Below are positions 92 to 12,609 of a DNA stretch of 17,093 nucleotides, in pieces. Positions within the stretch are counted from its first letter, which is position 1. Every line of letters begins with the position of its first letter. The translations under genes and the position numbers were made by a program. Origin of the DNA: an uncultured Chloroflexia bacterium (lineage in GTDB: Bacteria; Chloroflexota; Ktedonobacteria; Ktedonobacterales; JADMIN01). The DNA lies in the NCBI GenBank assembly GCA_963718915.1, contig CAVRAI010000016.1, positions 1-17,093 of the forward strand, read 5' to 3'. A model generated the notes under the pieces. It had not been told where the DNA came from. It searched no databases and saw only the letters and a list, made by a program, of their open reading frames with translations.

Positions 92-100
92 TGGTACAAT
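92..100 (+). promoter_or_regulatory. Possible extended -10 promoter element (TGgTACAAT) upstream of the pyrE-like gene
   Basis: TGnTACAAT motif about 135 nt upstream of the ATG at 237. There is no convincing -35. The same TGnTACAAT form occurs upstream of tatA (10275-10283). Confidence 0.3.
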
Positions 101-236
101 GCGGGCGGAAAGTTCTCCTGGCGCTCGCTGTACTCCACTCGACGATGCCGTCGGACAGTGCTGTGCATTGCCGCATGCGCATGGGTGTTCGCTTGCCAGC
201 GCGGATGAAATGGACAGGATTTCCGGAGGGTTGAGC

Positions 237-902
237 ATGAACAGAAATCAGGCGCTGGATAACCTGTGGCTGGCACGCGCATTGTACGACCTTGGCGCTG
301 TCTCGTTCGGCGATTTCACCCTGGGCGACAGCACCACTAACTCACCCGTCTTTATCAATCCCAAGCTGCTCATTAGCAATCCAATGGCGCTTCGGGTCGC
401 GGTCAAACTGATGCACCAGGAGGTCACGCTGGCGCAATCGTTGCGGCGCGCGCGGGTACATCCCTACGATGTCGTCGCTGGTGTGCCGGTTGGTGGCTTG
501 CTGCTCGCTACGGCGTTCTCGCTGGAATCATCGGTTCCACTGATTTATCCGCGTCTCAAGCCCGAAGGCACCGGCCCGCGCGGCATCGAGGGGCGCTTCC
601 AGCCGGGAGCGCGCGCGCTGCTGATTGACGACCTGATTACCGGCGGCAGGAATATTCTGGAGACAGCGCAATTTCTTCAAGAACACGATATTGTCGTCCA
701 CGACGCGCTGGTGCTGATCGACCGCGACATGGGCGCTCATGCGCGACTGAAGGCGCAGAGCATCAATCTCATCAGCATCCTCAAGCTGGAGGTGATGATG
801 AAATTCTACTCCTCACAGGGGCTGATCGACCCAGACGACTACCAGCGCTACGTCGACTACGCGCAACTCAACGCCCCCTCGCGCGCGCCGAGTGCTGAGT
901 AG
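237..902 (+). CDS. pyrE: Orotate phosphoribosyltransferase (type I PRTase, UMP-synthase-like OPRT domain)
   Basis: PRPP-binding loop ALLIDDLITGGRNILE. The N-terminal pattern LYDLGAVSFGDFTLGDSTTNSPVFINPKLL and the segment VAGVPVGGLLLATAF..PLIYPR resemble, from memory, the OPRT half of UMP synthase. The ORF track opens at 99, but the ATG at 237 is preceded by GGAGGG (224-229) at good spacing, and the 46 aa upstream are Cys/His/Ala-rich and do not look like protein. Confidence 0.8.
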   Translation: MNRNQALDNLWLARALYDLGAVSFGDFTLGDSTTNSPVFINPKLLISNPMALRVAVKLMHQEVTLAQSLRRARVHPYDVVAGVPVGGLLLATAFSLESSVPLIYPRLKPEGTGPRGIEGRFQPGARALLIDDLITGGRNILETAQFLQEHDIVVHDALVLIDRDMGAHARLKAQSINLISILKLEVMMKFYSSQGLIDPDDYQRYVDYAQLNAPSRAPSAE

Positions 903-980: not shown

Positions 981-1910
981 TTACTGCTGAATATCAGGAT
1001 CGAGGGTGCGCGGCGCCTGAGGCAGCGGCGTGGTTGGTGGCTGTGGTTGCCCAAACGGCTCGGAGATCGCCGGTGGCGGCGTGCCCGAAGTCGGTGCGGA
1101 AGCTGGTTTCGCTGGAGGATTGCCGTTGGGTGCGATCCGATGGGATGCCGCCGTTAGTAACTCGCGTAGCGGCTCGATGAGATCAATGGGCAGGGGGAAA
1201 ATGATCGTTGAATTCTTTTCCACCGCGATCTCGGTCAGCGTCTGCAGATAGCGCAACTGGAGCGCCGCAGGCTCGGTCGAGATCAGATGGGCCGCATCGG
1301 CGAGCGTCTGCGCCGCCTGGAATTCGCCCTGCGCCAGCAGCACTTTGGCCCGCTTCTCGCGCTCGGCTTCCGCCTGTTTCGCCATCGCGCGCTGCATCGT
1401 CTGTGGCAGCTCGACGTCTTTCAACTCGACGGTGGTCACTTTAATGCCCCAACGCTCGGTATGCTCATCGATGATCTGCTGCACCGCGCGATTGATTTCC
1501 TCGCGGTTGGCCAACAGTTGATCCAGTTCTGACTGACCCATTACGTTGCGCAGCGTCGTCTGGGCAATCTGCACCGTCGCGCGGTAGTAGTCCAGCACGT
1601 TATTGACGGCGTCGTTGGGAGTGACCACGTAGAAGTAAACGACCGCGCTCACCCGCACCGTCACATTATCGCGGGTGACGCCCTCTTGCGGCGGTAGCTC
1701 GATGGTGACGATACGCAGGTCAATCTTGCGCATTGTGCTGATGAACGGCGGCACCCAGAAGACTCCTGGCCCTTTCGCGCCACGCAGACGTCCGAGCACA
1801 AAGATGACACCGCGCTCGTACTGATTCACCACGCGCAGCCCCGCCAGAAGGAACAGCAGGAGCAAAACCACAATGATAGCGCCCGCTACACTTAATGTAA
1901 CTGGATCCAC
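981..1910 (-). CDS. SPFH/band-7 (stomatin/slipin-like) membrane protein with a Pro-rich C-terminal tail
   Basis: N-terminal TM helix (AGAIIVVLLLLFLLAGL) followed by typical SPFH sequence (VVNQYERGVIFVLGR..., ..IKVTTVELKDVELPQTMQRAMAKQAEAEREKRAKV..). GTG start at 1910 with GAGGGGA upstream. It lies 33 nt downstream of nfeD, the classic operon pairing. Confidence 0.9.
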   Translation of the reverse strand: MDPVTLSVAGAIIVVLLLLFLLAGLRVVNQYERGVIFVLGRLRGAKGPGVFWVPPFISTMRKIDLRIVTIELPPQEGVTRDNVTVRVSAVVYFYVVTPNDAVNNVLDYYRATVQIAQTTLRNVMGQSELDQLLANREEINRAVQQIIDEHTERWGIKVTTVELKDVELPQTMQRAMAKQAEAEREKRAKVLLAQGEFQAAQTLADAAHLISTEPAALQLRYLQTLTEIAVEKNSTIIFPLPIDLIEPLRELLTAASHRIAPNGNPPAKPASAPTSGTPPPAISEPFGQPQPPTTPLPQAPRTLDPDIQQ

Positions 1911-1943
1911 CTCGTCCCCTCGTTTCTGTTATCACGTCCGCCG

Positions 1944-3347
1944 TTACTTATGACGACGTGACACTCCCACCACATCCGAAGTTGGCTCAACCAGGACTTT
2001 TAGTCCCTCCACGCGCACCACCCGAACCGACGCGCCCGCCTCGATGGGCGGCGCATCAACCTGCGTCAGACGAGCGCTCCAATCCTCTCCCATGACACGC
2101 ACGCGGCCCTCTGGCGCTAGCGATGTTAGCACCGTCGCCTGCTGGCCAACCAGTCCCGCGCTGCCAGTGCGCACCGGCCAGCGCTGCGAGCGGATCACGA
2201 ATTGCAGTACGATGAGCGCGATCAGGCCGACGCCAATTACCACCCCGCCGATGATCACTGGACTGAGTGGTTGCGAGCCCCGGTCCACACCAGTGTCAAA
2301 GAAGATAAACGAGCCGAGCGCCAGGCTGACCAATGCCCCTATCGAGAGGACGCCATGAGTCGGCACGCGCACGTCTATCCCCAGCAGCACAATCGCCAGC
2401 AGCATCAGCGCCAGCCCCGCCCAGTTGGGGTCGAGCGTTCCAGCGCCCAGCAGGAAAAGCACCAGCGCAATCGCGCCGATGGTTCCCGGCACGATAGCTC
2501 CGGGATGCGCCAGTTCGAGGTAGATACAGACCGCCGCGACGATGAAAACCAGGAAGAGCACGGTGGGATCGAGGAAAAACGCCTGCACCTGATCGGCGAA
2601 TGTCGGCTCCAGCACCGTCACTGGCAGCCCCACGACCTGCAGCAAGACAGTCTTGCCGCTGAACATCACCACCGATGTGTCGTCGAGTTGGCTGAGCAGA
2701 TCATCGCGGGAGGTGGCGCGGAGGTTGATCAGGCCGTTATCGAGCGCCTCCTCGTCGGTGAAAGAGGCGGCATTAGTCACCGTCTGCTCCGCCGGGGCTA
2801 TCGTGCGATGATATGCCTTCTGCACCGAACGCACCATCGCCAGCAGGTCATTCTTGACCTTGGCATCCAGTGTTGAGGGCAGGTTATCGCCCGCGCTATC
2901 CACCGGGCTGGCCGCGCCAATACGGGTGCCGGGCGCCATCGCGATAATCGGTGCGGAGTAGGCGATCAGCGCGCCCGCCGAGGCCGCTCTCCCGCCTGCG
3001 GGGGTAACGTAGACCGCGACGGGCACCGGACTGGCCAGAATCGCCTGCGAAATAGCCTTCATGGAGTCAAGATCGCCGCCGGGCGTATCCATCTCGATGA
3101 TGAGCAGCGCCGCCCCATCGTCATGCGCCGTCTGTATCGCGCCAGTCAAGAAGCGCGCCGACGCGGTATCTACCTCCTGATCGAAGGAGACCACATCGAC
3201 GTGAGGGCTATTGGCGAGCGCCGTGGGCGCGCCACCAACCAGAGCCGCCACCGCCAGCGCCGCAGCGCAGACGCCAATCAGCGTCAGCGACAGCGCGATG
3301 CCGCCAACGATCCATCCGCTTCGCGCAGAGAAGGATGCCACGCGCAT
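1944..3347 (-). CDS. nfeD: Long-form NfeD family membrane protease (ClpP-class serine protease domain, multi-TM region, C-terminal OB-fold NfeD domain)
   Basis: Signal/TM-like N-terminus MRVASFSARSGWIVGGIALSLTLIGVCAAALAVAAL, protease motif GGRAASAGALIAY, several TM helices, and a C-terminal GLVGQQATVLTSLAPEGRVRVMGEDWSARL..VRVVRVEGLKVLVEP. The start at 3347 is chosen because AAGGAGG lies just upstream. The ORF track extends to 3620, but that extension lies upstream of the predicted promoter. Confidence 0.85.
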   Translation of the reverse strand: MRVASFSARSGWIVGGIALSLTLIGVCAAALAVAALVGGAPTALANSPHVDVVSFDQEVDTASARFLTGAIQTAHDDGAALLIIEMDTPGGDLDSMKAISQAILASPVPVAVYVTPAGGRAASAGALIAYSAPIIAMAPGTRIGAASPVDSAGDNLPSTLDAKVKNDLLAMVRSVQKAYHRTIAPAEQTVTNAASFTDEEALDNGLINLRATSRDDLLSQLDDTSVVMFSGKTVLLQVVGLPVTVLEPTFADQVQAFFLDPTVLFLVFIVAAVCIYLELAHPGAIVPGTIGAIALVLFLLGAGTLDPNWAGLALMLLAIVLLGIDVRVPTHGVLSIGALVSLALGSFIFFDTGVDRGSQPLSPVIIGGVVIGVGLIALIVLQFVIRSQRWPVRTGSAGLVGQQATVLTSLAPEGRVRVMGEDWSARLTQVDAPPIEAGASVRVVRVEGLKVLVEPTSDVVGVSRRHK

Positions 3348-3429
3348 AGGAAGCCTCCTTACCCAAAACCAGCCGCTCTGCCTTCTCCGCCACATTCCAT
3401 AACACATCTCTGCTGGTGGCGCTAGCCTG

Positions 3430-3458
3430 AATATAGACCTACCGTTACATGCCGTCAA
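3430..3458 (-). promoter_or_regulatory. Sigma70-type promoter for the nfeD-SPFH operon (-35 TTGACG, 17-nt spacer, -10 TATATT on the minus strand)
   Basis: The minus strand reads TTGACG gcatgtaacggtaggtc TATATT. It lies about 80 nt upstream of the nfeD ATG, inside a visibly AT-richer 400-bp spacer. Confidence 0.5.
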
Positions 3459-3754
3459 GCGGCGAAACATTCGGCCACAATGCGCGAGTAACACGAGCAT
3501 GAACACGCCAATTGTTGCCGGGTTCATAATCTCGGCGCGTATCACTTCCTTATATGTTGAATCCAGCAACCAGCAAAGATACCCATAGGTATCGCTCGGA
3601 GTAACCAGTGTCATAAGCAAGGACGCTTCTCAGCTGCGCAAATTACTGGTCGTGTGCATAGCATGCGTCGAGATGTCGACACTCTTCGATACGCTCGCCG
3701 AAAAAATGGAACGGCCAGAACCGCACGGCCCCTCGCTGTTGAGTCAGATCCCGT

Positions 3755-5695
3755 TCAGCAAGTCGTGTCGATATCCAGCGCGTTGGCATCGCTGGCGGAA
3801 TGGTCTACGCTCAAGCGTTTGTAGCGGTTGAAATCGGCGACGATCCGTTCGGCGATGTCGCGGCTCTGGTGAAACCCTGGACGAATCTGGACGGTATAGG
3901 GCTTGCTCGACCCGATCCCGCTATTGGCAAGCGTGATGCCGCTGAAGGCGTCAGACGCCGTGATCGTCACCGTGCTCAGCGAGTCGTAGGGATGCTCAGA
4001 CAGACGTGCGGAGTTAAAAAAGATGATATAGCCTTCCGGCACTGTGATGATAGTGTCTGGATAGCGTAACCGGCGGCGCGTAAAGAGCAGGTTCGGCACG
4101 CCGATACCAAACAGCAGCACGCTGGCAATGAAGAGGGGATAGAGATTGCCAATCGCCAGCGCGAACAGAACGCCAAACGCCGCAACCGCCAGCAGAATAA
4201 TCGTCGAATAGATGAAACGCGCTGGCAGACTCGCCCGGTAGACGGCGCCATCGGGCGGAGTTATCCCACGAAGCGCCTGCGCCATGACCAGCGTGGAGCT
4301 CCGCGGCAGCCGTCCGCCGGGCAGCGCGCCGAAGGTCGCCGCTGGATGCGCGCCCGCCTGATCGAGCGCCTCGGCCAGGTTCAGGACGCCAAGCAAGAGG
4401 TTGTCGCGGAGGTCGCTACGCGGGCACTGGCGAAGCTCGGACGAAGGCTGGCGGGTCGTGCGAATCTTGGCGACGAGTACCGGCTTGCCAGCTTTCAGTG
4501 CGTGCTGATATTCGTTCCTGACGGCCGCCGACCGGAGCGCAGCTGGCGAGAGCGCGACGACCAGCGCGGCGCATTGATCAATCGCCTGGCCCACCTGCGC
4601 CGACCAGGCCTGCCCGGCCCGCAGATTGCTTCGATCCACCCAGACGTTGTACCCCGCCTGCTGCAGGCTCAGCTCAAGCCGGTCAATGATGCTGGCGTCT
4701 TTGCGCGAGTAGCTGATAAAGAGCAGGGGGGCCGCCGCAACCGTGGGCGCCAGGCCTGGTTCTCCAGATAGATAGCGCGCGACGTATGCCTGGTATTGTG
4801 CGAGCGCCTGCTGCCCCAGAATGCCCTCGCCCGGAAACTTGCTCAGCGTCATTGCAACGAATGGTCGCCCGTTTCTGGGGTCCACCTTCAGACGCACGTC
4901 ACTCGTGCGCGCCTGCGCAATCGGGATGTCTGTGGTCGCGTCGCGGAACGCCGCCGAGACTGCCCCGCCCGTTTTGGTCGTCACGATAAAGCCATCCGGC
5001 GTCAATATCACCATCGGACTGTTCTTCAGCGAACGGAGCGCGGTGGGGCTGTATTTGATATAGAGCTGATAGATGATGTACAGGGCTGGCGCCACGACGA
5101 GCAAATTTCGGCCTGTGGCAAAGTACGTCAGAATGGTAAGCACGACGGTGATCGTCGCCCCATAGATCGTCCAGCGCGAAAGCCGCCGACCGGCGCGAAC
5201 CGGAAGCCGACTCACATACCATGCCGGAGGCGTGATGCCGGAACGCGCGCGCGCCAGCACAACCTCGGCATCAAGATCAGGTGGCGTCGCAATGGGGTAA
5301 CGGGCGATACCCAGCGTATCGAGTGCGATCAGCAGCGCCGCCCAGCCCGCCTGCTCGCCCGCGGAAAAGTCAATCGCCTGGAGATGGCTCACATCGGCAG
5401 GCAGATCGTTAGCCGACGAGACAATCACTGGAATGACCTGCTGGTTGTGGGCCAGCGCATACTGATAATCCGCCGTCACCTCAGCGGAGCGCATGCTGGC
5501 GCGTGAAACGACGACAAGGACGACCTGGCAGGCATCGATATCGCGCTGTCTTTGATCGCGCGTCGCTGGCCCGCTCAGATCGCCGCCTTCGTGGATCGCC
5601 AAACCGCGTAATCGCAGGCGCTCGCACAGACTATCGACAAACGGGCGATCCTGGCCCGAGGCGCTCAGATAGAGTTGCGGTGGACTGTTCAGCAT
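3755..5695 (-). CDS. Tandem-duplicated TIR-domain membrane protein: (TIR, 2 TM helices, small beta-rich PH-like domain) x2
   Basis: TIR_2-like signatures occur twice: LYLSASGQDRPF...VVLVVVSRASMRSAEVTADYQYAL and LFISYSRKDASIIDRLE...ALVVALSPAALRSAAVRNEYQHAL. Each is followed by GITPP...LPxR, two hydrophobic helices and an ~85-aa beta-rich segment ending in a helix. The maximal ORF starts at 5737. I prefer the ATG at 5695 (MLNSPP...) because AAGAGG lies 9 nt upstream. Confidence 0.8.
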   Translation of the reverse strand: MLNSPPQLYLSASGQDRPFVDSLCERLRLRGLAIHEGGDLSGPATRDQRQRDIDACQVVLVVVSRASMRSAEVTADYQYALAHNQQVIPVIVSSANDLPADVSHLQAIDFSAGEQAGWAALLIALDTLGIARYPIATPPDLDAEVVLARARSGITPPAWYVSRLPVRAGRRLSRWTIYGATITVVLTILTYFATGRNLLVVAPALYIIYQLYIKYSPTALRSLKNSPMVILTPDGFIVTTKTGGAVSAAFRDATTDIPIAQARTSDVRLKVDPRNGRPFVAMTLSKFPGEGILGQQALAQYQAYVARYLSGEPGLAPTVAAAPLLFISYSRKDASIIDRLELSLQQAGYNVWVDRSNLRAGQAWSAQVGQAIDQCAALVVALSPAALRSAAVRNEYQHALKAGKPVLVAKIRTTRQPSSELRQCPRSDLRDNLLLGVLNLAEALDQAGAHPAATFGALPGGRLPRSSTLVMAQALRGITPPDGAVYRASLPARFIYSTIILLAVAAFGVLFALAIGNLYPLFIASVLLFGIGVPNLLFTRRRLRYPDTIITVPEGYIIFFNSARLSEHPYDSLSTVTITASDAFSGITLANSGIGSSKPYTVQIRPGFHQSRDIAERIVADFNRYKRLSVDHSASDANALDIDTTC

Positions 5696-6009
5696 CGGTG
5701 GCATCCTCTTTAACACCTGATGGCGAGACGACGGCAAAGGCCCGGCGATTATCTCTATTGTAACCGATAGCTACCAGGCGTGCCCCACATGACCGTGGGA
5801 TCGTTGCGCTGGATTGCATCATGGCACGGTCGATTCGCCTGAAATGACGCTGGCGGATCGGATGGGCTTACAGTCGGCGTAGGCAGCGCCGCGTGGCCCG
5901 CTGTATACTGTTGTAGGCGTGAACTGTCTGCAACAGCGTGGCCCACGGAGACCACCGCTCACTGGCGAGCGGGGCTGAGGCTGCGCTTGAATAGTCCGAG
6001 GAGGACGGC

Positions 6010-7440
6010 GTGGCTACAGGACAAACAGAGTTCGACGTGCTGGTGATCGGCACGGGCGTCGGCGGCTATCCGGCGGCGATTCGCGCGGCGCAACTGGGCG
6101 CGCGCGTGGGCATCGTCGAGAAGCAGTACATCGGCGGCACCTGCCTCAACGTCGGCTGCATCCCATCGAAGGCGCTGCTACACGTCGCCCATCTCTACGC
6201 GACATTTGACGAGATGGGTCAGATGGGCATCGTGGCGAGCAAACCCACAATCGACATGGGCGTTGCGGTCGCCTATAAAGAGAAGGTTGTCAAGCAGTTG
6301 ACTGGTGGAGTTGGCCAACTGCTCAAGGCCAACGGCGTCACCATCTTCGAGGGGACGGCTGAGATGCAATCGCCGACGCAGGTGCGTGTCACCCTCAAGG
6401 ATGGCTCAGTCCAGGATCTGCGCACCAACAAGCTCATTCTGGCCAACGGCTCGAAGGTGGCCCGCCCGCCGTTCCCCGGCATCGACGGGCGCAATGTCAT
6501 CTTCAGCGATGATGCGTTGACCCTGTCGTCGGTGCCATCCAGCCTTGTTTGCATCGGCGGGGGTGTCATCGCCGTCGAGCTGGCGTGCATGCTCAACGCC
6601 TTTGGTACCGAGGTGACCATCGTCGAGATGCTGCCCGCGATCATCGCCAATGAAGACGAGGAGACCAGGAATGCGCTGGCCCGGTCGCTGACGAAGCGCG
6701 GGGTGAAGATTGTCACCGGCGCGAAGGTCGAGTCTATCGAGGACGCCGATGGCAAGAAGCGCGTGACGGCGACGACGAGCGACGGCAAGGCGACTTTCGA
6801 TGGCGAGTATGTGCTGGTGGCAGTGGGCCGCCAGGCGAATCCGGTTGGGCTGGATGCGCTGGTGAAGGCTGGCCTGAAGATGGAACGCGGCTGCGTCGTG
6901 GCCAACGAGAAGATGGAGACGAATCTGCCAGGCGTCTATGCCGTCGGCGATCTGGTCGGGCGAACCTGGCTGGCGCACGTGGCGGAGACCGAGGGCGAGG
7001 TCGCGGGTGAGAACGCCACCGGCCATGAGGCGCAGATGGACTACAACGTCATCCCGCGCCCAATCTTCACCTTCCCGGAGATTGCCTCGGTCGGCCTGAC
7101 GGAGCAGCAGGCGCGCGAGCGCAACGCCAACATCAAGGTGGGCAAGTTCCCGTGGGCGGCCAATGGCAAGGCGCTGGCGTCGAACGAGGCCGAGGGCTTC
7201 ACCAAGGTCATCATCGGCGAGTATGGTGAGATTCTGGGCGCGACCATCTTCGGGCCGGACGCCACCAATCTGATTACGGAATACTCGCTGGCGATGCGCG
7301 CTGAACTGACAGTCGATGAGATCATGGCGACCGTCCATCCGCACCCGACCTACAGCGAGGCGCTCCGCGAAGCAGTGCTCGCCGCAGAGGGCCGCCCGAT
7401 CCACATCTACCAGCGGTCGGCTGCCGCCGCGCGCCGGTAA
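6010..7440 (+). CDS. lpdA: Dihydrolipoyl dehydrogenase (E3 component)
   Basis: FAD-binding DVLVIGTGVGGYPAAIRAAQLG, redox-active disulfide GGTCLNVGCIPSK, NAD-binding CIGGGVIAVELA, and C-terminal HPHPTYSEA. GTG start with GAGGAGGA upstream. Confidence 0.92.
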   Translation: MATGQTEFDVLVIGTGVGGYPAAIRAAQLGARVGIVEKQYIGGTCLNVGCIPSKALLHVAHLYATFDEMGQMGIVASKPTIDMGVAVAYKEKVVKQLTGGVGQLLKANGVTIFEGTAEMQSPTQVRVTLKDGSVQDLRTNKLILANGSKVARPPFPGIDGRNVIFSDDALTLSSVPSSLVCIGGGVIAVELACMLNAFGTEVTIVEMLPAIIANEDEETRNALARSLTKRGVKIVTGAKVESIEDADGKKRVTATTSDGKATFDGEYVLVAVGRQANPVGLDALVKAGLKMERGCVVANEKMETNLPGVYAVGDLVGRTWLAHVAETEGEVAGENATGHEAQMDYNVIPRPIFTFPEIASVGLTEQQARERNANIKVGKFPWAANGKALASNEAEGFTKVIIGEYGEILGATIFGPDATNLITEYSLAMRAELTVDEIMATVHPHPTYSEALREAVLAAEGRPIHIYQRSAAAARR

Positions 7441-8614: not shown

Positions 8615-9892
8615 ATGGCCCGCATGTATGTTCGCACAACTTTGCCAAATGGCTTGCGTCTGGTAACCGCCCCCATTTCCCACGTACGCTCGGTAAGCAT
8701 CGCGTTTTTCTTTGGCGTCGGTTCGCGCTACGAGCCAGACGAAATCGCTGGCGTCTCGCACTTCATCGAGCATATGGTCTTCAAGGGGTCGAAGCGTTAT
8801 CCCTCCGCTCAGCTCATCTCCGAGACCATCGAGGGCGTCGGCGGCATGCTCAACGCCGCCACTGACCGCGAGACCACCATCTACACCGCGCGGATTGCCA
8901 GCCGCTACTTCGAGCAGGCGATGGATATGCTGGCCGATATGGTGCGCCAGCCGCTCTTCGTGCGGGACGAAATCGGACGCGAGCGCCGCGTGATTTCCGA
9001 AGAGATCGGCATGTATATGGACGATCCCGGCTCGTGGGTGAGCGTGTTGGCCAACGAGCAGTTCTGGCTGAATACGCCGCTGGGACGCGAAATCGCGGGC
9101 ACGCGCGAGACGGTGCAAAAGATGCCGGAGTTTGCCATTCGCGAATATCACGCGCGCCACTACCTGCCCAACAACCTCGTCATCAGTGTCGCGGGCGACG
9201 TGACGCCGGAGCGCGTCGAGCAGGTGGCGACACAACTGCTGGGCGACTGGCAGTCACAGCCCGCTCCCGTCTGGACTCCCTGCCCGCCCGCCGCGGACGC
9301 GCCGCGCGTGCGGCTGGAGCAACGCGATACCGAACAGACGAACTTCGATCTGCTGATGCCGGGACTATCCTACGCCGACCCTGACCGTTACGCGCTCTCG
9401 CTGCTGAACACAATCTTTGGCGACAGCATGAGCTCGCGGCTCTTCCTGGAGGTACGCGAGCGGCAGGGGCTGGCCTACGATGTCGGCTCGGCGCCAATTC
9501 AGTATCATGATACGGGCGCGTTCGCGATTACGGCGGGGGTTGCCCCAGAGCAGACCGAGGCGGCGCTGACGGCGATTCTCCGCGAAGTGGCGCGCATCCG
9601 CGACGAACCGGTGACGCCTGAGGAGTTGGCGCGCGCCAAGGAGTATACACGCGGACGATTTACGCTTGGCCAGGAAAATACCAGCGCCGTCTCGGGTTGG
9701 TATGGCGCGCAGGAAATGGAACTGAACGAGATTCACGAACTAGACGAAGAACTGGACTATTTTGACGCCGTCACCCGCGAGGATATCCAGCGCGTGGCGA
9801 AACGTATGTTCGTCGAGGAGTGGTTGCGTCTGGCGCTCATCGGCCCGCATCAGGATGCCGAGACATTCGAGCAACTGTTGCGCCTGCCATAG
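8615..9892 (+). CDS. M16 (pitrilysin/insulinase) family zinc peptidase
   Basis: Inverted zinc motif HFIEHMVFKG (HxxEH), a downstream catalytic-type E in RERRVISEEIGMY, and the typical N-terminus TTLPNGLRLV. An alternative start at 8624 is possible. Confidence 0.88.
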   Translation: MARMYVRTTLPNGLRLVTAPISHVRSVSIAFFFGVGSRYEPDEIAGVSHFIEHMVFKGSKRYPSAQLISETIEGVGGMLNAATDRETTIYTARIASRYFEQAMDMLADMVRQPLFVRDEIGRERRVISEEIGMYMDDPGSWVSVLANEQFWLNTPLGREIAGTRETVQKMPEFAIREYHARHYLPNNLVISVAGDVTPERVEQVATQLLGDWQSQPAPVWTPCPPAADAPRVRLEQRDTEQTNFDLLMPGLSYADPDRYALSLLNTIFGDSMSSRLFLEVRERQGLAYDVGSAPIQYHDTGAFAITAGVAPEQTEAALTAILREVARIRDEPVTPEELARAKEYTRGRFTLGQENTSAVSGWYGAQEMELNEIHELDEELDYFDAVTREDIQRVAKRMFVEEWLRLALIGPHQDAETFEQLLRLP

Positions 9893-9925: not shown

Positions 9926-10225
9926 CTACATTGTATCCCTCGTGGTCGCGCCGTCCGGCTCGACGGGGCGCTCGATGCTCCCCTCGACGATATGTGGCGT
10001 CGTGGGCGCGACGGGCGTTATCGGTGTGACCCGCGAGGGGACGTTGTCATCCTCATCGTCGCTCTCTGTGCCAGATAGCATCTGCGAGAGATTGAGGTCT
10101 TTGGTCGACTCGCGAAACTCTTTAAACATTTTGCCAAGCGATGATCCCATCTCAACCATCCGCTTTGGCCCAAACACCAGTAGCGCCAGCAACAAAAGAC
10201 CTATAATTTCGAGCCAGTGTGACAT
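9926..10225 (-). CDS. tatA: Twin-arginine translocase subunit TatA/E
   Basis: The sequence is IIGLLLLALLVFGPKRMVEMGSSLGKMFKEFRES, meaning a TM helix, the FGPKR hinge and an amphipathic helix, followed by an acidic tail. GGAGGT lies 5 nt upstream of the ATG. Confidence 0.88.
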   Translation of the reverse strand: MSHWLEIIGLLLLALLVFGPKRMVEMGSSLGKMFKEFRESTKDLNLSQMLSGTESDDEDDNVPSRVTPITPVAPTTPHIVEGSIERPVEPDGATTRDTM

Positions 10226-10550: not shown

Positions 10551-11483
10551 ATGGCAGATAAGACGACAACCAACACGCTGGGCGCGTTCTCCGACCAACT
10601 GGCCGATGTGGTTGCCACGGCGGCCGGCTGGATTGTGACGGTGGTGGCGCGCCCCCGGCAGACCGCGACCGGCATCCTGTGGAAGACCGAAAACGAAGTG
10701 ATTGTGATGACCGCCGACCACGTGGTCGAGCGCGAAGATGATATCAAAGTGGTGCTGCCGGATGGCAAAGAGGTCAAGGCGCAGTTGATTGGCCGCGACC
10801 CTGGCACCGACCTGGCGGCGCTCCGGCTCCCTGCCGATTCCCTCGGCGCGGGCGCCCCGACCGCCGACGCTGGCGCGACCCTGCGGCCTGGCAATCTGGT
10901 GCTGGCGATTGGCCGCCCCGGCAAGGATGGCCCTCGCGTCTCGTTCGGCGCAGTCAGCGCGATTGAGGGGCCGCGCCGCTCGTGGCATGGCGGCGAGATC
11001 GAGGGCGTCATCTTCGCCGATGTGACCCTCTATCCCGGCTTCTCCGGCGGTCCGCTGGTTGACCTTTCGGGCAAGCTCGTTGGGTTGAATAGCTCGCACC
11101 TCACCCGCCAGAATAGCAGCGCCATCCCGCTGGTGACGGTGGATCGCGTGGCGAAGACACTGCTGACGCATGGGCGGGTGCGCCGTGGCTATCTTGGCAT
11201 TGGCACCCAGCAGGTACCGCTGCCCGAGGCGCTGGCGCAGAAGGCTGGCCTGACGCAGGAGGCTGCGCTGCTGGTGGTGAATGTCGAGGCGGGTAGCCCG
11301 GCGGAACAGGGCGGCCTGATGCTGGGCGATCTGGTGGCGCTGGTGGCCGATCAGCCGATCATCGACGTGGATAGCCTGCGCGCGCAACTGACCAGCGACA
11401 AGCTCGGCCAGACGCTCCCGGTGCGTATCATTCGCGGCGGCGAGGTGCAGAACCTGACCATCACCCTCGGCGAGCGACAATAG
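10551..11483 (+). CDS. S1C (HtrA/DegP-like) trypsin-fold serine protease with a C-terminal PDZ domain, no signal peptide
   Basis: Catalytic triad contexts TADHVV, GTDLAAL and GFSGGPLV. PDZ-like region GYLGIG...GSPAEQGGLMLGDLV. RBS GAGGAGCGAGGA upstream. Confidence 0.88.
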   Translation: MADKTTTNTLGAFSDQLADVVATAAGWIVTVVARPRQTATGILWKTENEVIVMTADHVVEREDDIKVVLPDGKEVKAQLIGRDPGTDLAALRLPADSLGAGAPTADAGATLRPGNLVLAIGRPGKDGPRVSFGAVSAIEGPRRSWHGGEIEGVIFADVTLYPGFSGGPLVDLSGKLVGLNSSHLTRQNSSAIPLVTVDRVAKTLLTHGRVRRGYLGIGTQQVPLPEALAQKAGLTQEAALLVVNVEAGSPAEQGGLMLGDLVALVADQPIIDVDSLRAQLTSDKLGQTLPVRIIRGGEVQNLTITLGERQ

Positions 11484-11484
11484 T

Positions 11485-11545
11485 TGACCTCACCTCACCC
11501 CCTAACCCCCTCTCTCGCGAGGAGAGGGGGAACCAGAGTAGGCAA
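11485..11545 (+). repeat. C-tract/G-tract hairpin element, copy B (stem-loop 11506-11530)
   Basis: GACCTCA..CCCCCTCTC tcgcgag GAGAGGGGG AACCAGAGT, starting 2 nt after the stop of the first HtrA-like gene. Confidence 0.7.
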
Positions 11546-11589
11546 AGAGGGGGTTGCATATAAACACTTCTCGAAAGCGAGCATAGAGC

Positions 11590-12609
11590 ATGGGAACGCA
11601 ATTCGTTGCATCTGAGCTTTCGGACGAACTGGCCACTCTGGCGCGGCGCGTTCGTGAGAGCATGGTGCAGGTGCAGGCGGGGCCGCGCGGCATGGGATCC
11701 GGCGTCATCTGGAGCGTTGGCGAGCCAGATGCGACGGGCGAGGCTGAGGCGAACATCATCACCAACGCCCATGTCGTTGCCGCCGCCCGCGCGCAGACGC
11801 TGACCATCCGCCTGCACGATAGCCGTGAGCTCACGGCCACCGTCGCGGCGGTTGATCCAACACATGACCTGGCGCTGCTACGCACAAAGGCATCGGGCCT
11901 GCGCGCGGCTGAACAGGGCGATTCGGCGGCGCTACGGGTCGGCGAACTGGTGCTGGCGGTGGGTAATCCGTGGGGACGCGAGGGCGCGGTCACCGTCGGT
12001 GTGGTAGAGTCGCGCGCGCCCGCCGATCCCGACCTGGAACTCGAGCCTGCCGAGGATGAGAATGTCCCCGAGCAGCCGCCTGAGCGCGACCCACGCCGCG
12101 CCTGGGGAGTCTGGCGGCCACGACGTATCGAGCTGATTCAGGCCGATGTCCGACTCTATCCCGGCAACTCTGGTGGCCCACTCGCCGATGCGCGCGGGCG
12201 GGTTGTCGGCATCAACGCGATGGTGGGCGGTGGGTTGGGATTTGCCATTCCCAGCCGCACAGTGCAACAATTCGTGGCAGAGGCCGATGGCATCGAGCAT
12301 CCAGTCCTGCTGGGAGTCCAGGTCCTGACGGCTCAACTGCCCGAAGCATTGCGCCAGCGTCTCGGCATCCAGCAGGAAACGGCGCCGCTGATTGCGGCGG
12401 TTGAAACGGGCAGCGCGGGCGAGCGGGCCGGGCTGCTGGTGGGTGACATCCTGCTGGCGGTGGATGATGTGGCGGTTCGTGCCGCCGAGCATCTCGGACG
12501 CGTCCTCAACCGGACGAGCACGCGCGAGCAGCCGCGCACACTGACCATCGTCCGTGGGGGCGAGCGTCAGACACTCACCGTCACCCCGGCGACGGCTGAG
12601 GCAGCGTAG
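11590..12609 (+). CDS. Second S1C (HtrA-like) serine protease with PDZ domain, carrying an acidic ~29-aa loop insertion
   Basis: Triad contexts TNAHVV, THDLALL and GNSGGPL. PDZ-like region GSAGERAGLLVGDILLAVDD. The N-terminus parallels the upstream paralog. Insertion ADPDLELEPAEDENVPEQPPERDPRR lies at about 12010-12123. Confidence 0.88.
   Translation: MGTQFVASELSDELATLARRVRESMVQVQAGPRGMGSGVIWSVGEPDATGEAEANIITNAHVVAAARAQTLTIRLHDSRELTATVAAVDPTHDLALLRTKASGLRAAEQGDSAALRVGELVLAVGNPWGREGAVTVGVVESRAPADPDLELEPAEDENVPEQPPERDPRRAWGVWRPRRIELIQADVRLYPGNSGGPLADARGRVVGINAMVGGGLGFAIPSRTVQQFVAEADGIEHPVLLGVQVLTAQLPEALRQRLGIQQETAPLIAAVETGSAGERAGLLVGDILLAVDDVAVRAAEHLGRVLNRTSTREQPRTLTIVRGGERQTLTVTPATAEAA

Follow-up and report, generated by a model that had tools for sequence, protein, structure and literature searches.

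TIR enzymes are central to bacterial, plant, and animal immunity, and the way in which their self-association is restrained is an open question. The active site of a TIR enzyme requires a neighboring TIR, whose BB-loop orders and completes the site, and a tryptophan four residues ahead of the catalytic glutamate (W-x-x-x-E) is common among TIR NADases. In plants, RPS4 and RRS1 bring a competent TIR together with a divergent TIR partner on two separate soluble or nuclear NLRs, and two-helix membrane elements occur in nucleotide- or TIR-based conflict systems such as the SLATT effectors and the 2TM/1TM/TIR system of P2/P4. Among other described systems, SPARTA has a composite active site, with two of the four TIRs in its tetramer competent (PMC10474274), a membrane tether restrains the TIR NADase TirC of Dictyostelium and its removal unleashes toxicity (PMC13142454), single-protein TIR systems of E. 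coli, some of them with transmembrane (TM) segments, are proven phage defenses (PMC11350192), and oligomeric rings of membrane-anchored bacterial PH domains have been proposed as transporters or pores (PMC2817789). Here we analyzed a gene on the minus strand of a 17,093-nucleotide stretch of DNA (contig CAVRAI010000016.1; hereafter the window) from an uncultured bacterium of the Ktedonobacterales (Chloroflexota), whose product carries two TIR domains, each followed by a module that pairs a predicted membrane hairpin of two helices with a PH-like beta domain. We favor, tentatively and with somewhat less than even confidence, the reading that this single gene encodes a membrane-tethered TIR NADase switch that would be activated by clustering in a conflict setting.

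The chain runs twice through the same order, namely a TIR domain, a short helix and strand, a hairpin of two helices, and a beta domain that ends in a helix. The original prediction had described the open reading frame (ORF) of 660 amino acids (aa) as two copies of one module, and this is borne out both by BLASTP of one half against the other (residues 15-330 against 331-660 of the 660-aa ORF; E 3e-12, 27% identity over 247 aa), in which the alignment runs across TIR, linker, and hairpin, and by a single profile of the post-TIR region that matches both halves of the protein (E 1e-69 to 1e-76). An AlphaFold2 model of the whole protein, built on 17 family sequences, has a mean predicted local distance difference test score (pLDDT) of 80.6 and a predicted template modeling score (pTM) of 0.77, and it places helices at aa 174-193, 198-215, 492-515, and 518-544, with six strands and a long helix following in each half. 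Helices and beta domains are thus found at the positions claimed for them, allowing for a 14-residue offset that stems from the choice of start codon. The maximal ORF (3755..5737, minus strand) gives 660 aa from a TTG; the ATG at 5695 is the likely start, chosen for its Shine-Dalgarno spacing (AAAGAGG lies about 9 nt upstream) and because the resulting 646-aa form has the length of the database copy P0001 and an N terminus that agrees with all homologs. Residue numbers given here follow the 646-aa form, that is, the earlier numbering minus 14. The parts of the gene are as follows.

3755..5695, minus strand: TIR gene, stop codon included, encoding the 646-aa (TIR + 2TM/PH-like module) x2 protein
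5306..5683, minus strand: TIR1, degenerate, aa 5-130 (Pfam TIR_2 57.6 bits, E 2.2e-15; model pLDDT ~90)
4760..5305, minus strand: module 1, aa 131-312 (AlphaFold2, profile match E 2.6e-69, hydropathy), including the helix 'DAEVVLARARSG' and the 'PPxW-V-R' strand
5117-5176 and 5051-5104, minus strand: module 1 hairpin, weakly hydrophobic, aa 174-193 and 198-215
4769-5050, minus strand: module 1 beta domain and C-terminal helix, aa 216-309
4349..4732, minus strand: TIR2, canonical, aa 322-449 (Pfam TIR_2, TIR, and ThsB_TIR; profile alignment; Foldseek)
3797..4333, minus strand: module 2, aa 455-633 (AlphaFold2, Foldseek, hydropathy), including the helix 'STLVMAQALRG' and the strand 'PPDGAVYRA'
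4151-4222 and 4064-4144, minus strand: module 2 hairpin, strongly hydrophobic, aa 492-515 and 518-544
3770-4063, minus strand: module 2 PH-like beta domain, with a C-terminal helix extending to aa 642, aa 545-642

The assignment of two TIR folds holds in both sequence and structure comparisons. Pfam TIR_2 (PF13676) matches two stretches of the protein (125.1 bits and E 2.8e-36 for the whole chain), and with 57.6 bits TIR1 by itself clears the cut-off of 28. Foldseek comparison of the AlphaFold2 model with the Protein Data Bank (PDB) returned the TIR domains of SPARTA, SARM1, MyD88, Hydra TRR-2, BtpA, and AbTir, with E values down to 2.5e-6 and, for the isolated TIR domains, target-normalized TM-scores up to 0.76; the RPS4/RRS1 heterodimer 4c6t is among these matches at rank 47. 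TIR2 bears the motifs LLFISYSRKD, WVDRSN, and GQAW, and its Glu395 (codon 4511-4513), which as E409 had been singled out as the catalytic-type residue, indeed falls on SARM1 E642 in a profile search of PDB sequences that aligned 'VRNEY' of TIR2 with 'VHKEI' of SARM1. The BB-loop region of TIR2 (aa 358-364) is modeled with low confidence.

What did not stand is the idea of two equivalent TIRs. TIR1 begins with LYLSASGQD, in which LYLSAS replaces FISYSR, it has lost WVDR, and its catalytic column is occupied by Asp76 (codon 5468-5470), so that a glutamate of the SARM1 E642 type is not present. This asymmetry of one canonical and one degenerate TIR extends through the wider family. Glu395 is kept in 17 of 17 family members, and among representatives of two-module proteins at 50% identity the canonical glutamate is found in 19 of 21 second-position TIRs, the two without it being P0050 and P0092, where the order of the TIRs is reversed (in P0050, a homolog with two modules, the canonical TIR precedes the degenerate one). 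At the same clustering level, the glutamate column of the partner TIR is occupied by Asp, Ala, His, or Lys in 18 of 23 cases. In the subfamily of the window, close relatives have a nearly invariant acidic Asp at the catalytic column of TIR1, and Ala, His, or Lys occurs in distant relatives. TIR1 may have a residual or altered chemistry. Mean pairwise identity is 0.57 for TIR1 and 0.66 for TIR2, and the core residues of TIR1 are invariant, which argues that TIR1 is retained under selection and is not decaying.

All PADLOC matches of the protein are to the TIR parts of defense proteins (Aga_TIR-PNTD1-PNTD2, a pAgo-associated TIR; SAVED-TIR; ThsB). There is no match to a curated ThsB or ThcB model, as NCBIfam ThcB4 reached 36 bits against a cut-off of 220 and PADLOC ThsB an E value of 0.03, and the generic Pfam ThsB_TIR domain (31 bits) is the sole ThsB-type model matched. 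Pfam found no NTPase domain in the protein, which leaves it outside the STAND/NLR-like class.

The region that follows each TIR is a module of its own kind. Its short first helix is conserved, the pre-hairpin strand has the pattern 'G-x-T-P-P-x-W/G-x-V-x-R' in both modules, the module 2 helices reach Kyte-Doolittle values of 2.6 and 2.1, the loops between the helices are only 4-5 residues long, and each hairpin is flanked on both sides by clusters of Arg and Lys. By the positive-inside rule and given such tiny loops, we infer that each hairpin would return to the side of the membrane from which it enters, that both TIRs and both PH-like domains would be cytoplasmic and that no external sensor domain exists. 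When module 2 was modeled alone (m425410a55b07; pLDDT 78.3) and compared with the PDB by Foldseek, 50 of the 50 best matches were PH-like (probability 0.9-1.0), including the bacterial PH structures 3dcx and 3hsa, the Sin1/Avo1 PH domain, PTB domains, FERM C-lobes, and the PH-like domains of FACT. In this isolated-module model the pre-hairpin strand is again assigned as a strand and its only confident partner strands lie after the hairpin, so the pre-hairpin strand appears to complete the PH-like sheet and the hairpin would interrupt a PH-like domain within its first loop.

The original prediction had preferred a bacterial PH (bPH)-like arrangement over SLATT, and this preference is upheld for fold and layout, although sequence membership in the Pfam bPH families did not follow. 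Pfam gave no match to either window module (E <=10), to 10 diverse homologs (E <=0.1), or to 32 stand-alone modules (E <=10), bPH_1 to bPH_6 being among the models without a match in these searches. Likewise, a search of PDB sequences with the module profile brought up no match below E 1, and a Foldseek comparison of the module with viral structures was uninformative. SLATT itself could be ruled out, since the post-hairpin region consists of six strands and one helix and there is no SLATT match. No model in Pfam, NCBIfam, or PADLOC describes the hairpin plus PH-like module, and no curated family or defense model in these collections covers the architecture as a whole, in keeping with the earlier suggestion that it belongs to no described system.

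Searched exhaustively with a profile, 1.84 billion representatives yielded 85 proteins at E <=1e-3, and 108 proteins from the homolog search and this search were sorted by local profiles into the following classes.

(TIR-module) x2: 40/108 proteins
Module alone, about 190-210 aa: 37/108 proteins
TIR-module, as fragments and complete proteins of 325-357 aa: 13/108 proteins
Module-module without TIR: 10/108 proteins
TIR-NB-ARC-TPR protein of 2214 aa with three C-terminal modules (P0074): 1/108 proteins
Other or incomplete arrangements: 7/108 proteins

Window-type and stand-alone modules are related with a probability of 99.6% in hhalign (E 1.2e-24). Both halves of the window protein match the profile over the whole module, with the motifs G-x-x-P-x-x-W-x-V-x-R and L-V-x-x-P-x-G-F. 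The invariant Trp of 'P-x-x-W-x-V-x-R' is also present in the stand-alone modules, as is 'L-V-L-x-P-E-G-F-V' at the start of the beta domain. In stand-alone modules (P0049 and others) the inter-helix loop is 20-30 residues long and is followed by a semi-conserved Trp-x-x-x-Asp, compared with 4-5 residues in TIR-fused ones; an outward-facing loop may have been lost upon fusion to TIR. Every module member with a named source belongs to the Ktedonobacteria (Chloroflexota), and with one genome searched per GTDB species the full architecture occurs at three loci only, all in Ktedonobacterales or 'Chloroflexia' metagenome-assembled genomes (MAGs). The module was absent from all 36 other TIR loci fetched, and a word-indexed protein search with the stand-alone profile returned 11 proteins that added nothing. 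Judged from these sequences, the module of hairpin and PH-like domain forms a domain family of its own, which is restricted to one lineage and so far has no name.

Two apparently shorter homologs, P0023 (507 aa) and P0017 (529 aa), were ruled out as natural short forms. Both come from frameshifts in long-read MAG assemblies (L004 7998-9795 and L007 7917-9938), where the remainder of module 2 runs on in another frame, and in L004 the adjoining dihydrolipoyl-dehydrogenase-type gene is split as well.

Our results lead us to speculate on how such a chain could work. The gene product would be a TIR enzyme that is complete in itself and anchored in the cytoplasmic membrane, and the degenerate TIR1 would be the built-in structural partner of the catalytic TIR2, a role suggested by the TIR NADase sites of SARM1, AbTir, and SPARTA, which are completed by the BB-loop of a neighboring TIR. 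In the resting state, the anchor of four helices would, together with the PH-like domains, block longer TIR assemblies. A cue, which might be infection, envelope damage, or a ligand of the PH-like domains or of the conserved 'G-x-x-P-P-x-W' element, would then cause the PH-like modules to associate edge to edge, like bacterial PH rings, and this association would cluster the TIRs and turn on NAD+ cleavage, with growth arrest, death, or the release of an ADP-ribose-derived signal as possible outcomes. Among the possible settings of the TIR protein, conflict or defense would be the likeliest. The NLR-like protein P0074 ties the module to conflict-type architectures, and the position of its three modules at the C-terminal, sensor-side end favors a role in sensing or clustering over a role as effector. 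Besides these modules and its TIR-NB-ARC-TPR part, P0074 (L051 5891-12535, plus strand) contains a multi-helix hydrophobic stretch, and the adjoining gene (L051 4372-5346, minus strand) encodes a TIR protein of 324 aa, with a match to PADLOC ThsB1 in its C-terminal part (E 1.4e-42).

A wider proposal, which we offer as a doubtful extrapolation, would see the module as a domain for sensing and clustering that is embedded in the membrane, in effect a PH domain interrupted by a hairpin, and that gates the TIRs of Ktedonobacteria, in NLR-like giants as well as in the window chain, so that a catalytic TIR pre-paired with a pseudo-TIR would form a complete membrane-resident immune or death switch. 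If true, bacteria would have a counterpart of membrane TIR receptors that needs no external domain.

Both the transcription of the gene and the alternatives to a conflict role depend on its surroundings in the window, of which the nearest features are these.

6010-7440: dihydrolipoyl-dehydrogenase-type gene (lpd), divergent from the TIR gene
3703..3730, minus strand: terminator-like hairpin (3730-3713) and T-run, about 25 nt past the stop codon of the TIR gene
3430..3458, minus strand: promoter-like site of the nfeD-SPFH operon (TTGACG, 17 nt, TATATT; 10/12)
1944-3347, minus strand: nfeD, co-directional with the TIR gene
981-1910, minus strand: SPFH gene, paired with nfeD

The terminator-like element reads GGCCGTGCGGTTCTGGCC, then TTCCATTTTTT, and nfeD starts near 3347 after AAGGAGG. 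The claim that the gene has no partner and is transcribed separately from nfeD-SPFH agrees with this arrangement and with the contexts of homologs, and the promoter-like site at 3458-3430 and the gap of about 407 bp between the TIR gene and nfeD are both present as described. With its own terminator and a separate promoter and Shine-Dalgarno sequence for nfeD, the TIR gene is most likely monocistronic, as far as can be read from the DNA. An operon with nfeD-SPFH was ruled out by the intervening terminator and promoter, by variable spacers, and by the loss of adjacency in distant homologs. The maximal nfeD ORF (1944-3620, minus strand, 558 aa) is over-extended, and the ATG near 3347 (467 aa) is the probable start; NfeD of relatives has 447-484 aa. 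Further genes of the window encode a GNAT protein, an M16 peptidase, TatA, two HtrA-like proteases, a LuxR-type regulator, and an ABC exporter. NfeD-SPFH, the M16 peptidase, TatA, and the two tandem HtrA-like PDZ proteases make up an envelope and membrane proteostasis cluster (981-3347, 8615-9892, 9926-10225, and 10551-12609) that is syntenic in relatives of 74-86% identity. An ORF at 99-902 (plus strand, 267 aa) is conserved at 86-93% identity in three related genomes (L004, L006, and L007) and has no Pfam or PADLOC match.

Beyond the close relatives the surroundings change. Homologs at 39-48% identity and the wider family lie in unrelated contexts (ADH/ETF, His_Phos_1, LppX/MFS, glycosyltransferases), none of the 39-48% homologs or wider-family loci examined has an NfeD or SPFH neighbor, and across the window and the homolog loci examined no conserved partner gene was found. 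A survey of homologs, which the original prediction had called for, shows both duplicated and single TIR-module forms and does not place them uniformly in one housekeeping operon. No ThsA-type effector (SIR2/SLOG or Macro-TM) was present in the window or beside any homolog examined. The 48%-identity homolog P0024 has the PADLOC candidate PDC-S40 52 bp downstream, with a full-length match at E 1.4e-85 (L001 7809-8429, plus strand; also in L002 and L003); the PDC-S40-type gene has no Pfam domain and occurs neither in the window nor in the other loci fetched. Near P0050 (L053 7001-9073), a phage-type integrase about 3.6 kb upstream (L053 2228-3343, plus strand) and an HTH_17 gene suggest that this locus is an integrated element. 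Among shared genes the TIR protein is the most diverged, with 86% identity compared with 90-96% for its syntenic neighbors in one relative and 67% compared with 76-94% in another. This faster evolution and the changing contexts of the distant homologs both speak for the conflict reading.

Several observations weigh against a conflict-acting NADase switch. Relatives of 67-89% identity keep the gene at a fixed position between lpd and nfeD-SPFH, with variable inserts, and such a fixed housekeeping and envelope-proteostasis setting together with native GC content overall and at third codon positions (GC3) is unusual for a defense gene. No mobile or defense genes lie near the TIR gene in the window and close relatives, a whole-protein scan found no relative in viral contigs, and tblastn with both modules found no match in plasmid or phage records. 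In the Glu395 protein the position four before the catalytic glutamate is occupied by Ala and not by Trp. The module 1 hairpin (window 5051-5176) is only marginally hydrophobic (Kyte-Doolittle 1.5-1.6) and rich in Thr and Tyr, so that module 1 may need module 2 for membrane insertion or may be peripheral, and the PH-like Foldseek matches have weak E values (3e-3 to 6e-2) and were obtained with a predicted model. Recent horizontal transfer of the TIR gene into the window was ruled out by GC, GC3, and synteny.

The alternative that survives best retains the TIR chemistry and assigns it to an endogenous role, namely programmed cell death or developmental or envelope-stress signaling in the filamentous, multicellular Ktedonobacteria. 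The stable position in relatives and the native base composition would fit such a role, as would the lack of phage, plasmid, or viral copies in the searches above, the confinement of the family to one multicellular lineage, and the ordinary genes that adjoin stand-alone modules. Against it stand the shifting contexts of the distant homologs, one of which lies beside a defense candidate and another near an integrase, the faster divergence of the TIR gene relative to its neighbors, and the fusion of the module to an NLR-like TIR-NB-ARC-TPR protein that adjoins a ThsB-like gene. On balance we consider an endogenous role unlikely, if still a serious contender.

It is also conceivable, though improbable, that the membrane part is the effector and that the hairpins and PH-like domains form a damaging ring or pore, with the TIRs sensing, oligomerizing, or signaling. 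Such a division of labor would parallel the membrane effectors of CBASS, Pycsar, and type II Thoeris, oligomeric PH rings have been proposed as transporters or pores (PMC2817789), and the occurrence of the module alone and in tandem without TIR speaks for a function of its own. Weak matches to holin families were seen in 3 of 32 stand-alone members, but these are non-significant (best E 0.16) and reflect hydrophobic helices, while the strict retention of a catalytic glutamate in one TIR points to an enzymatic output and the module of the NLR-like fusion sits at the sensor end and not at the effector end.

Least probable of all, and hardly likely, is that the TIRs are non-enzymatic interaction domains of a housekeeping membrane scaffold, possibly one working with NfeD-SPFH (stomatin-type) microdomains or envelope proteases, which would agree with the co-directional nfeD-SPFH pair next to the gene, both in the window and in relatives with as little as 67% identity, with a neighborhood rich in envelope proteostasis genes, and with the missing Trp of the common motif, but sits poorly with the terminator-like hairpin after the TIR gene and the promoter-like site for nfeD, with the variable inserts that separate the two genes in relatives, with the 39-48% homologs and wider family that have no NfeD or SPFH neighbor, and with an invariant catalytic-type glutamate.

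Taken singly, TIR enzymes, TIR-TM fusions, and bacterial PH domains anchored to the membrane are all known. What is new is their combination, in a duplicated chain with one catalytic-type and one degenerate TIR, and the unnamed hairpin/PH-like family, which is also found on an NLR-like protein. If the clustering-activated NADase switch that we favor holds, the protein would be a naturally occurring example of a catalytic TIR joined in one chain to a non-catalytic TIR and held at the membrane, and it would lend itself well to work on asymmetric TIR active sites and on restraint by a tether. Through the module family, bacterial PH-like domains are connected with TIR and NLR-like proteins, in a multicellular phylum that has received little study. 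The great diversity of uncharacterized bacterial TIR architectures tempers the interest of any single one, this protein included, and should it prove inactive or merely structural, its value would shrink to that of a domain-annotation note.

In architecture, the E. coli single-protein TIR systems are a close likeness (PMC11350192), as they too consist of one gene that encodes a TIR with a catalytic glutamate and a membrane segment, without a partner gene; the window protein differs from them in its two TIRs, one of them degenerate, its four predicted membrane helices, its two PH-like domains, and its lineage. SARM1, AbTir, and the TIR-APAZ protein of SPARTA share the TIR fold and the catalytic glutamate, and their activity requires a neighboring TIR; there, identical chains assemble after a trigger, whereas here a catalytic and a non-catalytic TIR are part of one membrane-anchored chain. 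The likeness to RPS4/RRS1, in which a competent TIR is paired with a divergent one, is a functional analogy only. To our knowledge, none of the DUF304/bPH_2 (YdbS/YdbT type), DUF1200, and DUF2244 families is fused to TIR. These families resemble the module in having two N-terminal membrane helices, a cytoplasmic PH-like sandwich, and a C-terminal helix (PMC2817789). The window module differs from them in that it has no Pfam bPH match even at E <=10 and in that its helix and 'PPxW-V-R' strand appear to supply the first strand that is reportedly missing there. TirC likewise joins a membrane tether to a TIR NADase, but it is eukaryotic and has a single, N-terminal membrane helix, a single TIR, and no PH-like domain (PMC13142454). 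Compared with SLATT, the post-hairpin domain is beta-rich and PH-like instead of helical, and compared with the three-gene 2TM/1TM/TIR system of P2/P4 hotspots, the protein is encoded by a single gene, probably monocistronic, with NfeD and Lpd as neighbors. Finally, Thoeris pairs ThsB with ThsA, whereas the window gene stands without an adjacent ThsA-type effector or a curated ThsB/ThcB match and instead combines two unlike TIRs and their predicted membrane modules in one chain.

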